Sequence record: OR594180
Length of the DNA: 45,233 nucleotides
Direction: 5' to 3' (one strand)
Source of the DNA: Escherichia phage vB_EcoM_SHAK7693
Shown: in pieces, positions 4,891 through 43,101 of the stretch
How the letters are laid out: each line of letters begins with the position of its first letter
Numbering within the stretch: the stretch's first letter is position 1
Made by a program: the position numbers and the translations under genes
Notes under the pieces: model-generated
What the model was told of the DNA's origin: nothing
What the model saw: the letters and a program-made list of their open reading frames with translations, nothing else
The model's database searches: none

Positions 4891-4920
4891 AAAAGGCCCC
4901 GTAAGGGGCCTTAGTTTTAG
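4891..4920. terminator. bidirectional rho-independent terminator
   Basis: AAAAGGCCCC-GTAA-GGGGCCTT then T-rich run. Confidence 0.55.
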
Positions 4921-5435: not shown

Positions 5436-5467
5436 AGCGCCCCGCTTTAAGGCGGGGCTTTACTTAT
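5436..5467 (+). terminator. rho-independent terminator
   Basis: GCCCCGC-TTTAAG-GCGGGGC followed by TTTACTTAT. Confidence 0.5.
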
Positions 5468-6764: not shown

Positions 6765-7814
6765 ATGGCAATTACCACTATCGGCGATATCGTAACTGGC
6801 AACATCCCGGTCCTGGCGTCTTATATGACCGAGGACCCGGTAGAAAAAACCGCGTTCTTCCAGTCCGGTATTCTTACCCCTACTCCGTACGCCGCCGAGA
6901 TTGCCCGCGGCCCGTCCAACGTCGCTAACATTCCTTTCTGGAAAGCGATTGATACTTCTATCGAGCCTAACTACTCGAACGACGTATACCAGGACATCGC
7001 TACCCCGCGTAACGTGCAAACCGGCGAGATGATGGCGCGCGTTGCATACCTGAACGAAGGTTTTGGCCAGGCGGACCTGACTGTCGAACTGACCAGCCAG
7101 AACCCGCTGCAATCCGTAGCGTCCCGTCTGGATAACTTCTGGCAGCGCCAGGCGCAACGCCGTCTGATCGCTACCGCGCTCGGTCTGTACAATGACAACG
7201 TAGCCGCTACCGACGCATACCACGAGCAGAATGACATGGTTGTAGACGTGTCTGCTACTCTGGGCTTCGACGCAGGTGCGTTCATCGACGCCACCCAGAC
7301 TATGGGTGATGCGCTGATGGGCAACGGCGGAGAAGTGCTGGGTGCTATCGCGATGCACAGCTTCGTTTATGCACAGGCCCGTAAGCAGCAGCTTATTGAC
7401 TTCATCAAAGACGCCGACAACGACACACTGTTCGCCACCTACCAGGGTTACCGCGTGATTGTTGACGACAGCATGACCGTAGTCGACACCGGCTCTAGCC
7501 GTAAGTTCATCTCCATTATCTTCGGTAACGGCGCTATCGGTTACGGTGAAGGTTCTCCGTCCAACCCGTTGGAATACGAGCGCGAAGCGTCTCGCGGCAA
7601 CGGCGGTGGGGTAGAAACCCTGTGGACCCGTAAGACCTGGTTGCTGCACCCACTGGGCTACAGCTTTACCAGCGCGGTAATCACTGGCAACGGTACCGAG
7701 ACCGTCGCACGTTCTGCTTCCTGGCAGGACCTGGCGAACGCCTCCAACTGGAACCGCGTTGTTGAGCGTAAGCATGTACCGATTGCCTTCCTGGTAACTG
7801 GTGTCGGTGCTTAA
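6765..7814 (+). CDS. major capsid protein
   Basis: 349 aa after scaffold, followed by strong terminator; HK97-type by size and position. Confidence 0.8.
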   Translation: MAITTIGDIVTGNIPVLASYMTEDPVEKTAFFQSGILTPTPYAAEIARGPSNVANIPFWKAIDTSIEPNYSNDVYQDIATPRNVQTGEMMARVAYLNEGFGQADLTVELTSQNPLQSVASRLDNFWQRQAQRRLIATALGLYNDNVAATDAYHEQNDMVVDVSATLGFDAGAFIDATQTMGDALMGNGGEVLGAIAMHSFVYAQARKQQLIDFIKDADNDTLFATYQGYRVIVDDSMTVVDTGSSRKFISIIFGNGAIGYGEGSPSNPLEYEREASRGNGGGVETLWTRKTWLLHPLGYSFTSAVITGNGTETVARSASWQDLANASNWNRVVERKHVPIAFLVTGVGA

Positions 7815-12314: not shown

Positions 12315-12340
12315 AAGGCCCCTTTCGGGGCCTTTTCTTA
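12315..12340. terminator. bidirectional rho-independent terminator
   Basis: GGCCCC-TTTC-GGGGCC then TTTTCTTA. Confidence 0.55.
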
Positions 12341-14092: not shown

Positions 14093-14284
14093 TCACTTCT
14101 CTTTGACATTCGAGTTACAAGCCCAGATTAAAATAAATACCCACGGCAACAGAATCCAGCCAAGAAACAGGTTCGCCATGAATATCGCCAACTTCGCTTT
14201 ATGGTTGCGCATATGGGCTACTAAAAACGGGATAAAATAAACTAAAACGATAATGATTAAGAAGAACATAGTAATACCTGTCAT
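14093..14284 (-). CDS. small membrane protein (63 aa, two predicted TM helices)
   Basis: Internal ATG with RBS AGGAG; hydrophobic segments; first gene after class-A promoter. Confidence 0.5.
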   Translation of the reverse strand: MTGITMFFLIIIVLVYFIPFLVAHMRNHKAKLAIFMANLFLGWILLPWVFILIWACNSNVKEK

Positions 14285-31396: not shown

Positions 31397-31416
31397 TAGT
31401 TAAATTGATTCAGATA

Positions 31417-40882: not shown

Positions 40883-41238
40883 TGGTACAGAAATACGAGG
40901 TTCGCGGTACCGAATTAGGTGGCGATGCATTCTACGAAGATTGGGTTGAGGTAGTTCGCTACGAAGATTACGCGAAACTCGAAGCCGAGCTACAGAAATA
41001 TAAAGACCAGTTACGCGATTCTTCGGTACAGATTAAGGAGATGCAGAAAGATATAGATGAGTTGCAGCGAGAGGTGCAACATAAGACCGAAGCACTAGAC
41101 TACCTTTACGCAAACCAGGTATCGCCAGGGCAATCCGTTTGCCGTAAAAACGATACCCAGGAATGTGCGCACGAGTGGAGTAGGTACATTGTACACCCCT
41201 ATAGAAAGATATGCTTGGTATGCGGAGTGAAGGAGTGA
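40879..41238 (+). CDS. hypothetical protein, paralog family member 3
   Basis: MVQKYE, ELQKYKDQ, CRKNDTQECAHEW; C-terminal CxxC. Confidence 0.45.
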   Translation: MMVQKYEVRGTELGGDAFYEDWVEVVRYEDYAKLEAELQKYKDQLRDSSVQIKEMQKDIDELQREVQHKTEALDYLYANQVSPGQSVCRKNDTQECAHEWSRYIVHPYRKICLVCGVKE

Positions 41239-41402
41239 CGTTAGCAACTGACATCCTGAAACACAGCGGCAAAGCGCCGCTGTCACCACGTAAAAGACAT
41301 TTCAACACGCATCCGACGTATCTTGAATTGCATGAGTGCCGGAAGACACCCGCACAACGACTGGCTGAATATTGGAGAAAGCATGACTACTATCGCATTT
41401 GA
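41235..41402 (+). CDS. hypothetical small protein (55 aa)
   Basis: GTG start with RBS GAAGGAG, GTGA overlap. Confidence 0.3.
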   Translation: MTLATDILKHSGKAPLSPRKRHFNTHPTYLELHECRKTPAQRLAEYWRKHDYYRI

Positions 41403-41823
41403 CGGTAAGACTATGGCCTGTGATACCCGGGTTACGTGCGGAAGCAGTTACTATAATACCGACACTAAGATATACGAGAATGATTTTTATATTATCGGAG
41501 TAGCCGGTGACGCGGGTGTCGGAACTATGCTCGTAGACTGCCCGTATATCCTCCAGGCCAGACATTATGACTTCGATTTCGAAGCCCTGGTGTTTGCTAA
41601 AGACACGCGGAAACTGTATAAAGTCGCGTTCTATAAATCGTGGGATTGCACTCTTAGTTCAGTTATCCTCGTCGCCGACAAATTCTCTGCCGTTGGGTCT
41701 GGTTCTCCGTACGCTCTGGCCGCCATGTATTTAGGTAATACCGCTACACACGCTGTTATGGTAGCGGCGGAGTTCGACACGAACACAGGCGGCAAGATTA
41801 TTACCAAACCATTATTCGGATAA
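41383..41823 (+). CDS. HslV/proteasome-like Ntn-hydrolase protease
   Basis: N-terminal M-TTI (Thr1 nucleophile after Met removal), conserved Lys ~33, GSGSPYALAA motif; alignment to E. coli HslV done by eye from memory. Confidence 0.6.
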   Translation: MTTIAFDGKTMACDTRVTCGSSYYNTDTKIYENDFYIIGVAGDAGVGTMLVDCPYILQARHYDFDFEALVFAKDTRKLYKVAFYKSWDCTLSSVILVADKFSAVGSGSPYALAAMYLGNTATHAVMVAAEFDTNTGGKIITKPLFG

Positions 41824-41839
41824 TTCCTAACCGTGGTAT

Positions 41840-41875
41840 CCTCCAGGTACAGCATACTAAATATGCACCTGGAGG
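41840..41875 (+). promoter_or_regulatory. hairpin sequestering the holin ribosome-binding site
   Basis: Perfect 9-bp inverted repeat CCTCCAGGT...ACCTGGAGG; right arm contains the GGAGG upstream of TTG start. Confidence 0.5.
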
Positions 41876-41882
41876 ATTCATC

Positions 41883-42191
41883 TTGGATAAATTTACTGAA
41901 ACTGTGACAGGCTGGCTTCTGGCTGCCGCACTAGCTGGCGGGGTAATAGGCCTACGGCAACACAAAGCCACTATTACTGGTCCTGTCGATGCTCTCTGTT
42001 TTCTCGCCACTGGATTTGCGTGCGCCGTATTCGGTGCACCTCTTGCCGCTCAATGGTTCGGTATCGCAGGTGAACGCGAAATAGCAGGCCTTGGGTTCAT
42101 CATTGCTATTCTCTGGATGCCCATCTATTCCCGCCTCTCCGGTATCGTCGCCGGAGAATATATCGCACGTCGAGGAGGCACAGATGAATGA
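41883..42191 (+). CDS. holin-like membrane protein
   Basis: Several hydrophobic helices; directly upstream of lysozyme; TTG start. Confidence 0.5.
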   Translation: MDKFTETVTGWLLAAALAGGVIGLRQHKATITGPVDALCFLATGFACAVFGAPLAAQWFGIAGEREIAGLGFIIAILWMPIYSRLSGIVAGEYIARRGGTDE

Positions 42192-42456
42192 GTTATTCTG
42201 GTTCGGTGGTATGCTGGCAATCGGAGGCGCATCGCTGTTTAATGTGTATCACCCCCGCGTGGACGACGGACTATTTGGCCGGGTGCTCTATATCCTGACT
42301 GCTATTGTCTGCGCCGCCGGAGGCATTCACCTGTTACAGGGCAGCATGTCGCCCACGTTGCCTGAGACCTTAATCACATTAGTTGCGCTGCGTCAGATTC
42401 GTCAGGCGTGGCTATCATATGGAGGATATAAGCGTGTCTCGAAACATTTCCGATAA
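42184..42456 (+). CDS. second lysis-cassette membrane protein (holin/antiholin-like)
   Basis: Two hydrophobic helices; RBS GGAGG; overlaps holin stop. Confidence 0.45.
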   Translation: MNELFWFGGMLAIGGASLFNVYHPRVDDGLFGRVLYILTAIVCAAGGIHLLQGSMSPTLPETLITLVALRQIRQAWLSYGGYKRVSKHFR

Positions 42457-42953
42457 TGGCTTACATTTCTGCGCCGCGTTCGAGGGATTCCGCGGAATTG
42501 CGTATCGTGCTACGCCGAATGAGAAGTACCTGACTATTGGGTACGGTCACTATGGGCCGGACGTAACACCAGGTAAGACCATCACCCCTGGCCAAGGCCT
42601 CCTGTTACTGAATCGCGATAGGCCAAGGCCTCCTGTTACTGAATCGCGATATGGCTAAGGCCGTAGCTGCGGTTGATGCAGCAGCACACCATTCGCTGAC
42701 ACAGGCGCAGTTCGACGCCGTGTGTGACCTGGTCTATAACGCCGGTGCAGGTGTGATTGCAGCTACTACTGGCACGGGTAAGGCGCTGCGTTCCGGTGAT
42801 GTTGCGACGCTACGGGCTAAACTGGCGCTGTTTATCAACCAGAACGGCAAACCGCTACTCGGCTTGCGCCGTCGTACAGCGGGTCGTCTGGCGCTGTACG
42901 ACGGTAAACCATGGCGGGAGGCAGAGGCTATTGGGCGCGCGGTGAAAGGTTGA
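42419..42953 (+). pseudogene. endolysin (GH24 lysozyme) interrupted by a 31-bp tandem duplication
   Basis: N-terminal ORF has EG..AY...TIGYGH; C-terminal ORF has QFDAV..L.YN.G lysozyme motifs; frames differ by +1 at duplication. Confidence 0.7.
42590..42651. repeat. perfect 31-bp tandem direct duplication
   Basis: GGCCAAGGCCTCCTGTTACTGAATCGCGATA at 42590-42620 and again at 42621-42651. Confidence 0.9.
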
Positions 42954-43017
42954 CACCTAAGACTAATCCGACGATACTTAAATCACCTCCTGTTCCCTCC
43001 CTCTGCTCTCCAGTTTT

Positions 43018-43052
43018 CTCCCGGCCCTGACCCAGCCGGGATTTTTTTTTAT
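43018..43052 (+). terminator. rho-independent terminator after lysis cassette
   Basis: CCGGC...GCCGGG stem followed by T9. Confidence 0.6.
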
Positions 43053-43072
43053 CTATTTTCTGTAATGACTAG

Positions 43073-43101
43073 TTGACTATTATCCTGGACCCTATTATAT
43101 T
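43073..43101 (+). promoter_or_regulatory. sigma70-like promoter (TTGACT-N17-TATATT)
   Basis: Near-consensus hexamers with 17-bp spacer. Confidence 0.5.

Follow-up and report, generated by a model that had tools for sequence, protein, structure and literature searches.

Does the hairpin that stands directly in front of the first holin gene of this phage hold back the synthesis of that holin, and would that make it a brake on lysis? Phage lysis timing is a central fitness trait, set by holin dosage, and the two-holin cassette of Kagunaviruses, which are widely collected for therapy against K1 and ExPEC E. coli, is uncharacterised. The DNA analysed here (the window) is a stretch of 45,233 nucleotides from Escherichia phage vB_EcoM_SHAK7693 (sequence record OR594180) and, at 45.2 kb, is approximately the whole genome of a Kagunavirus-like siphophage (Guernseyvirinae). 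Its positions 41300-43000 are matched by 130 GenBank phage records, mostly from Escherichia phages, at 80-90% identity. Occlusion of the ribosome-binding site (RBS) of lysis genes is textbook knowledge for T4, lambda, and MS2. Our literature searches found no experimental data for this phage group, no earlier description of this hairpin, and no transcript maps for Kagunavirus or Dhillonvirus. A reading of the letters made without database searches (the sequence-only reading) had proposed that the hairpin is a translational brake on lysis timing.

The genes at the locus are as follows:

41383-41823, + strand: HslV-family peptidase-like gene, adjoining the lysis leader upstream (PHROG 1040, E = 4e-35; weak Pfam Proteasome match)
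41883-42191, + strand: holin-like gene 1 (holin-1), 102 aa, TTG start (PHROG 2359 'holin', E = 5e-29)
42184-42456, + strand: holin-like gene 2 (holin-2), 90 aa, with an ATG that overlaps the holin-1 stop and its own open Shine-Dalgarno sequence (SD) GGAGG (PHROG 2508)
42434-42953, + strand: P22-type endolysin, GTG start, open SD (Pfam PF00959 on both halves)

Holin-1 has what marks a holin of PHROG 2359, i.e., a profile match, several transmembrane (TM) segments, and the form of a small protein beside an endolysin. Its hydrophobic segments (about three) lie at ~6-24, 31-62, and 61-90, and the endolysin is encoded two genes downstream. In phage Schulenburg, gene 1 is annotated as 'antiholin/holin' with three TMDs and gene 2 as 'holin/antiholin' with two TMDs.

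The sequence-only reading had placed the holin start at a TTG at 41883, and that is where it lies. Holin-1 homologues at 38-48% identity are found in Dhillonvirus (HK578, slur05, and others) and in KLB22-like Klebsiella phages, and these begin with ATG at the same codon as the Kagunavirus TTG (MDK.../MHK...). The TTG start is therefore supported in three ways: it is the first start codon of the holin-1 ORF, every Kagunavirus copy has TTG-GAT-AAA at this place, and the Dhillonvirus ATG falls on the same codon. The non-ATG start that had been pointed out earlier is thus conserved across Kagunavirus copies. The first ~7 codons of holin-1 are nearly invariant among relatives, synonymous sites included. 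A dual-start holin of the lambda type is absent: the N-terminus reads MDKFTETV, and the next in-frame start is a GTG at codon 8 without an SD. The Dhillonvirus homologues are likewise single-start. Non-ATG starts occur in two of the three lysis genes (TTG 41883 for holin-1, GTG 42434 for the endolysin); each of these start codons stands 7 nt past GGAGGAT, and both are conserved in the relatives inspected.

The endolysin gene of the window has features of its own. It carries an exact 31-bp tandem duplication at 42590-42651 (GGCCAAGGCCTCCTGTTACTGAATCGCGATA, twice; detected with TRF), which frameshifts the gene into two ORFs, 42434-42658 and 42651-42953. When one copy is removed, the reconstruction is a 163-aa endolysin that is collinear with relatives. 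The duplication is absent from the relatives inspected (L001, L037, L039, L059, and Ivi) and represents either an artefact of assembly or a mutation that disables the gene. In L002 and L062, the endolysin frame enters HNH-endonuclease-like sequence after codon 10, ~551 nt past the holin-1 start, which points to an insertion of the homing-endonuclease or intron type. The endolysin gene of the window also contains, in its 3' part, the longest perfect inverted repeat of the whole stretch (42869-42881 / 42892-42904, 13 bp, 10-nt loop). Directly past the endolysin, at 42950-43101, are two strong sigma-70-like promoters (TTGACA-17-GATACT and TTGACT-17-TATATT), and between them, at 42988-43049, are weak, sub-threshold Rfam sRNA-like matches. 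The next transcription unit probably begins in the stretch 42950-43101.

The following elements lie upstream of holin-1:

41806-41837, + strand: non-coding leader travelling with the lysis cassette (pairwise identity 0.91-0.99, compared with 0.5-0.85 in the flanks)
41838-41848, + strand: 5' arm of the hairpin, ATCCTCCAGGT, with the anti-SD element CCUCC at 41840-41844
41849-41866, + strand: apical part of the hairpin, with a 3-nt bulge, a 5-bp inner helix, and a 5-nt loop at 41857-41861
41867-41877, + strand: 3' arm of the hairpin, ACCTGGAGGAT, containing the SD GGAGG at 41871-41875
41878-41882, + strand: spacer TCATC separating the hairpin from the start codon, without a T-run, unlike the T6-T8 of Dhillonvirus and KLB22-like phages

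The arms had been described as a perfect 9-bp repeat, CCTCCAGGT at 41840-41848 and ACCTGGAGG at 41867-41875. Both are present at those positions and the repeat is real, but its length was understated: it is perfect over 11 bp, with 41838-41848 pairing with 41867-41877. The 18-nt spacing between the arms was also given correctly, but this region is not simply a loop, as it is partly paired by the inner 5-bp helix (41852-41856 with 41862-41866 in this window; weaker in most relatives). The RNA of 41825-41900 folds at -27.6 kcal/mol, compared with -13.6 +/- 2.9 kcal/mol for 200 dinucleotide shuffles (z = -4.83), none of which is equally stable, and the hairpin by itself accounts for a fold of -22.4 kcal/mol. 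Perfect inverted repeats of at least 11 bp with a loop of at most 30 nt number three in the window against 0.26 expected, and none of 100 shuffles reaches three. The holin-1 hairpin motif occurs once in the genome, and the Rfam 15 covariance models give no match at 41800-41900, even at E <= 1.

The hairpin closes the ribosome site of holin-1. The GGAGG at 41871-41875 lies wholly within the 3' arm of the 11-bp stem, 7 nt before the TTG, and has a pairing probability of 0.99. Freeing positions -14 to +3 costs 18.1 kcal/mol, so that holin-1 ranks first in occlusion among the window's 94 SD+start candidates (median 5.8 kcal/mol, 90th percentile 10.2 kcal/mol). The earlier claim that the repeat occludes the GGAGG before the TTG is borne out by this position and rank. 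Within the lysis cassette, only the holin-1 RBS is occluded: the opening cost is 4.5 kcal/mol for holin-2 and 4.4 kcal/mol for the endolysin. The same holds for phage Schulenburg, with 14.5 kcal/mol for holin-1 versus 5.4 and 4.7 kcal/mol for holin-2 and the endolysin. De Smit and van Duin reportedly related the stability of RBS hairpins to translation, and for hairpins from -14 kcal/mol (genus consensus) to -22 kcal/mol (window), initiation is predicted to be nearly silenced.

Conservation of the stem in relatives had been named as a way to check the brake, and the stem is indeed kept: approximately 64 IMG/VR and metagenomic copies, which collapse to 19 haplotypes over -60 to +25, retain it, and the 100-nt block 41806-41905 around it is present in 120/120 matching GenBank records at >=87% identity. 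No other stretch of the locus is as conserved as this block, which has a pairwise identity of 0.94-0.995, compared with 0.75-0.90 in the rest of holin-1 and ~0.5-0.7 upstream. It stays with the lysis cassette under three different upstream genes. The upstream gene is variable cargo: the window and some relatives have an HslV-like peptidase, most relatives have an unrelated small ORF, and LSPA1 (L027) has a third type. The mosaic joint between this cargo and the lysis leader lies at about 41806 in the window and at the equivalent place in L001-L039. Within the leader are GATAAT at 41819-41824, a weak -35-like TTCGGA at 41815-41820, and CGTG at 41832-41835. Loop and flanks match the stem in their degree of conservation, and the pairing is therefore not set apart by conservation as such.

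Variation within the stem is sparse. The genus consensus hairpin (-14.2 kcal/mol) is weaker than that of the window, having a stem of 9 bp with a U.C mismatch and one U-A pair, and a poorer inner helix. The consensus mismatch, 41847:41868, has been repaired twice, from opposite sides: T41847>G in the window and its nearest relatives L001 and Ivi gives G-C, and C41868>A in the LSPA1/TU03 lineage gives U-A. Other changes yield G.U pairs (41845 A>G, 41843 C>T in phage Ivi, and the inner helix of L027), and two to three variants break pairs (L079 41870 T>C, VT223 41877 T>C, and the inner helix of L074). In a covariation test on 15 distinct Kagunavirus haplotypes, 9 of 11 pairs were invariant and the score was reached by 432 of 500 shuffles, which reflects too little variation. 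The apparent strand-specific G.U signal, with three compatible versus two incompatible transitions in the main stem, is not significant. Judged by these sequences, stem conservation within the genus is indistinguishable from the general conservation of the block.

The sister groups allow a wider comparison. In front of their holin genes, a strong hairpin ends 5-7 nt before the start and carries an SD-like purine run in its 3' arm. The HK578 holin stem is AGTCCCAGTGAG/CTTACTGGGACT (-19.3 kcal/mol), of which L056 carries a variant, and the KLB22 holin stem is TCCCCGGA/TTCGGGGA (-11.2 kcal/mol). These stems are unlike those of Kagunavirus in sequence and equal in geometry, and the leaders of Kagunavirus and Dhillonvirus look homologous (CGTG-N-TAT...CCAGT). 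Ranked by RBS occlusion, the holin comes first among 59 annotated genes in HK578 (21.6 kcal/mol) and 8th of 71 in KLB22. The hairpins of HK578, slur05, L056, and KLB22/L057 have T6-T8 directly after a GC-rich stem and are called as intrinsic terminators, and the HK578 site is the end of the rightward early operon, before the lysis and structural genes.

This cross-genus parallel supports a functional hairpin at the holin start, with a transcriptional face in the sister genera. It is not holin-specific, because the same layout of hairpin, T-run, and ATG recurs at HK578 gp18 and gp09 and at KLB22 TerL, tipM, and MVRL070, and because the KLB22 holin is only 8 of 71 in occlusion. The recurrent layouts of HK578 (L100) are at 14153-14181 and 7540-7571, and in these and in KLB22 (L101) a -10-like hexamer often abuts the 5' arm. 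RNAalifold on a cross-genus MAFFT alignment gave no consensus structure, with the arms aligned out of register. The cross-genus argument rests on the individual folds, and we regard the RNAalifold outcome as a failure of the method, not as counter-evidence.

Our preferred explanation, held with moderate confidence, is that the hairpin is a cis-acting element which sequesters the SD, strongly damps holin-1 translation, and thereby fixes the holin-1 : holin-2 ratio. Any + strand transcript with both arms would form a stable stem-loop from 41838 to 41877, in which the anti-SD CCUCC pairs with the SD GGAGG of holin-1, ahead of a weak TTG start. Since the 5' arm is transcribed first, the SD would be captured once made. 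Binding of the 30S subunit, and hence holin-1 synthesis, would be strongly lowered, while holin-2 and the endolysin would be translated normally off the same message via their own open ribosome sites. The element would set a low holin-1 output, independent of upstream transcription, and this low output would fix the holin-1 : holin-2 ratio, on which lysis timing depends. Two further points speak for occlusion: no T-run follows the hairpin, and the element is unlike this genome's own terminators. We infer both the lowered translation in vivo and the effect on lysis time.

The idea of a translational brake is partly supported. There is an exceptional, conserved hairpin that specifically occludes the holin-1 SD, an occlusion with a sound computational basis, but a simple, always-on brake on lysis timing is less secure. 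One reason is that the predicted near-silencing implies either that very little holin-1 is wanted or that some relief mechanism exists; near-silencing is hard to reconcile with a needed protein unless there is relief. Another is that there are two holin-like genes and gene 1 is annotated 'antiholin/holin'; if gene 1 is the antiholin, its occlusion would speed lysis. In addition, the canonical intrinsic terminator at the homologous position in sister genera makes a transcriptional role possible, and stem conservation within the genus comes without usable covariation.

Relief could come from a promoter inside the hairpin, an alternative we consider possible but tentative. As in T4 gene e, the hairpin would silence holin-1 only on read-through transcripts from upstream genes, and a promoter with its -10 overlapping the 5' arm would start transcription at about A41849, giving an mRNA that does not include the 5' arm and is freely translated. 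The candidate is:

41834-41842, + strand: candidate extended -10, TGgTATCCT, overlapping the 5' arm, with a predicted +1 at A41849; weakly supported

The predicted +1 is the first base past the 5' arm, and without that arm the calculated opening cost falls from 19.2 to 5.8 kcal/mol in the window, from 11.0 to 4.9 kcal/mol in Schulenburg, from 17.8 to 1.4 kcal/mol in HK578, and from 12.2 to 2.3 kcal/mol in KLB22. Equivalent geometry is seen in HK578 (TGaTATAGT) and KLB22 (TTGACC-17-TACTAT). TGnTAT is common to Kagunavirus and Dhillonvirus, and in Kagunaviruses it is mainly the 'n' (41836) that is polymorphic, apart from phage VT223, which carries CG instead of TG and so counts against the promoter. 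An extended -10 in such geometry is rare (~0.4% per site genome-wide, and 1 of 37 ordinary terminators). An internal promoter would also explain why the conserved ~30 nt upstream of the stem travel with the cassette, would resolve the near-silencing problem, and has a documented precedent in T4 (PMC3014915).

However, TATCCT has only 4/6 consensus bases, and the -35 has 3 or 4/6 and is polymorphic. A sigma-70 consensus scan reports no promoter at the hairpin in the window; among relatives, it picks out GATAAT as a candidate in Schulenburg and gives a good promoter in KLB22. Of 37 ordinary terminators from three genomes, 27% have a plain -10-like hexamer directly next to the 5' arm, so the promoter-in-hairpin geometry is partly an effect of composition. 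Against a genome-wide background of ~5%, the geometry had looked like strong evidence, and we downgraded it in view of the 27% in the terminator control. Neither the CGTGnTATCCT box nor the leader recurs above chance in the window, and a competing GATAAT at 41819-41824 (GAGACA-18-GATAAT in Schulenburg) would start transcription upstream of the hairpin.

An internal promoter could also be part of something more general, although we think this doubtful: a nested module, used by at least three sigma-70-dependent siphophage groups (Kagunavirus, Dhillonvirus, and KLB22-like phages) to reset expression. In this module, the 5' arm would overlap a host-type promoter, the hairpin itself would serve as a full terminator in some genera, and the 3' arm would carry the SD of the next gene, with reuse at HK578 gp18 and KLB22 TerL, tipM, and MVRL070. 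If this were true, RNA arriving from upstream would be terminated and/or untranslatable, and expression of the downstream gene would depend entirely on transcripts that begin within the hairpin. Lysis timing would then be independent of upstream read-through, i.e., the logic of T4 gene e carried out with host promoters.

It is unlikely that the hairpin is a weak or degenerate intrinsic terminator (an attenuator) between the upstream genes and the lysis cassette, with SD occlusion as a by-product. Such an origin would fit the canonical terminators at the homologous place in HK578, slur05, L056, and KLB22/L057, the HK578 site at the end of the rightward early operon, and the apparently homologous leaders of Kagunavirus and Dhillonvirus. 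At -2.76, the tail score narrowly clears a lenient threshold, but 12.6% of random positions reach this score, most + strand terminators here score -3.4 to -5.2, and those of HK578 and KLB22 score -4.88 and -5.64. The tail, TCATCTTGG, has no T-run; it is invariant in the genus yet not T-rich. Terminators of the window (e.g., those at 5439, 7830, 12315, 25392, 37902, 38672, and 39693) are GC-rich stems with tetraloops and T-runs, whereas the holin hairpin has a long apical region, and a terminator scan made zero calls in 41200-42600. The holin-1 hairpin is at most a weak attenuator. The structural-gene region of the window contains near-identical bidirectional terminators of the form AAGGCC(C/T)C-N4-G(G/A)GGCCTT, at 2739-2758, 4893-4912, and 12315-12334, and also at 31397 (- strand).

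The GATAAT at 41819-41824 leads to a further, improbable reading, in which the lysis mRNA begins from this promoter at ~41831 and the hairpin, as a 5'-terminal stabiliser, shields it from 5'-end-dependent decay. GATAAT has 5/6 consensus bases and is nearly invariant, and most relatives have a GAGACA -35 at 18 nt from it, a combination which the scan calls in Schulenburg. The window, however, does not have this -35 because the HslV coding sequence occupies its place, GATAAT is out of register in Dhillonvirus, and a stabiliser has no need to contain the SD.

We consider it very improbable that the palindrome acts in DNA as an operator bound by a dimeric protein, or that it owes its conservation to module-boundary recombination alone, with no function in RNA. 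Conservation does extend equally over arms, loop, and flanks, and the block does lie at a mosaic joint with variable upstream genes. However, in several variants (41845 A>G, 41843 C>T, and the L027 inner helix) pairing survives only as G.U in the + strand RNA, the sister genera have a hairpin of another sequence equally far from the start, an arm distance of 29 bp centre to centre is unusual for an operator, and an operator would here be a single motif in the genome. Translational coupling to the upstream gene is disfavoured, as the upstream stop lies 14 or ~34 nt before the stem and the identity of the gene varies, and an RNase III site was considered unlikely, with a consensus stem of only 9-10 bp.

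SD sequestration by the holin-1 hairpin, our preferred reading, is a new example of a known restraint on lysis genes, not a new principle. The hairpin is nevertheless a useful handle: for telling holin from antiholin, for engineering lysis time, and for testing the insulation of the lysis clock from upstream transcription.

Among known systems, the lysis gene of MS2 has its start closed by secondary structure, so that synthesis of the lysis protein is low, and the hairpin is opened by translational coupling to coat-gene termination. The closed start is the likeness to holin-1; the difference is that coupling is unlikely here, because the position of the upstream stop codon varies.

In its working, the element would resemble the leaders of T4 gene e and lambda S. 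In T4, inhibitory RBS hairpins are present on long transcripts of the genes e (lysozyme), soc, 49, and I-TevI, a promoter inside the region encoding the 5' strand gives transcripts that do not have the inhibitory helix, and the RBS hairpin of gene e cuts translation about 100-fold (PMC3014915). As in gene e, the SD or start of a lysis gene is here held in a cis helix immediately upstream, inside a longer transcription unit. The target in T4 is an endolysin, whereas here it is a holin-like gene, and the T4 transcripts come from mapped late promoters (TATAAATA), whereas here the host-type promoter is a candidate with a weak sequence match.

In lambda, a stem-loop (sdi) just upstream of S controls access of ribosomes to the SD and tunes lysis timing (bioRxiv 10.1101/2025.05.14.654169). 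The position just upstream of a holin gene is shared with holin-1. However, sdi is a short structure, spanning nt -21 to -7, and divides initiation between the in-frame S107 and S105, whereas the Kagunavirus gene has a single start, its second holin-like protein comes from a separate gene, and its hairpin is much more stable.

The hairpins of Dhillonvirus (HK578, slur05) and KLB22-like phages resemble that of Kagunavirus in their position before a homologous holin, in the SD-like run in the 3' arm, and in a leader that is probably homologous. They differ in that they have a short loop, T6-T8, and terminator calls, whereas Kagunavirus has a long, partly paired apical region and no T-run.
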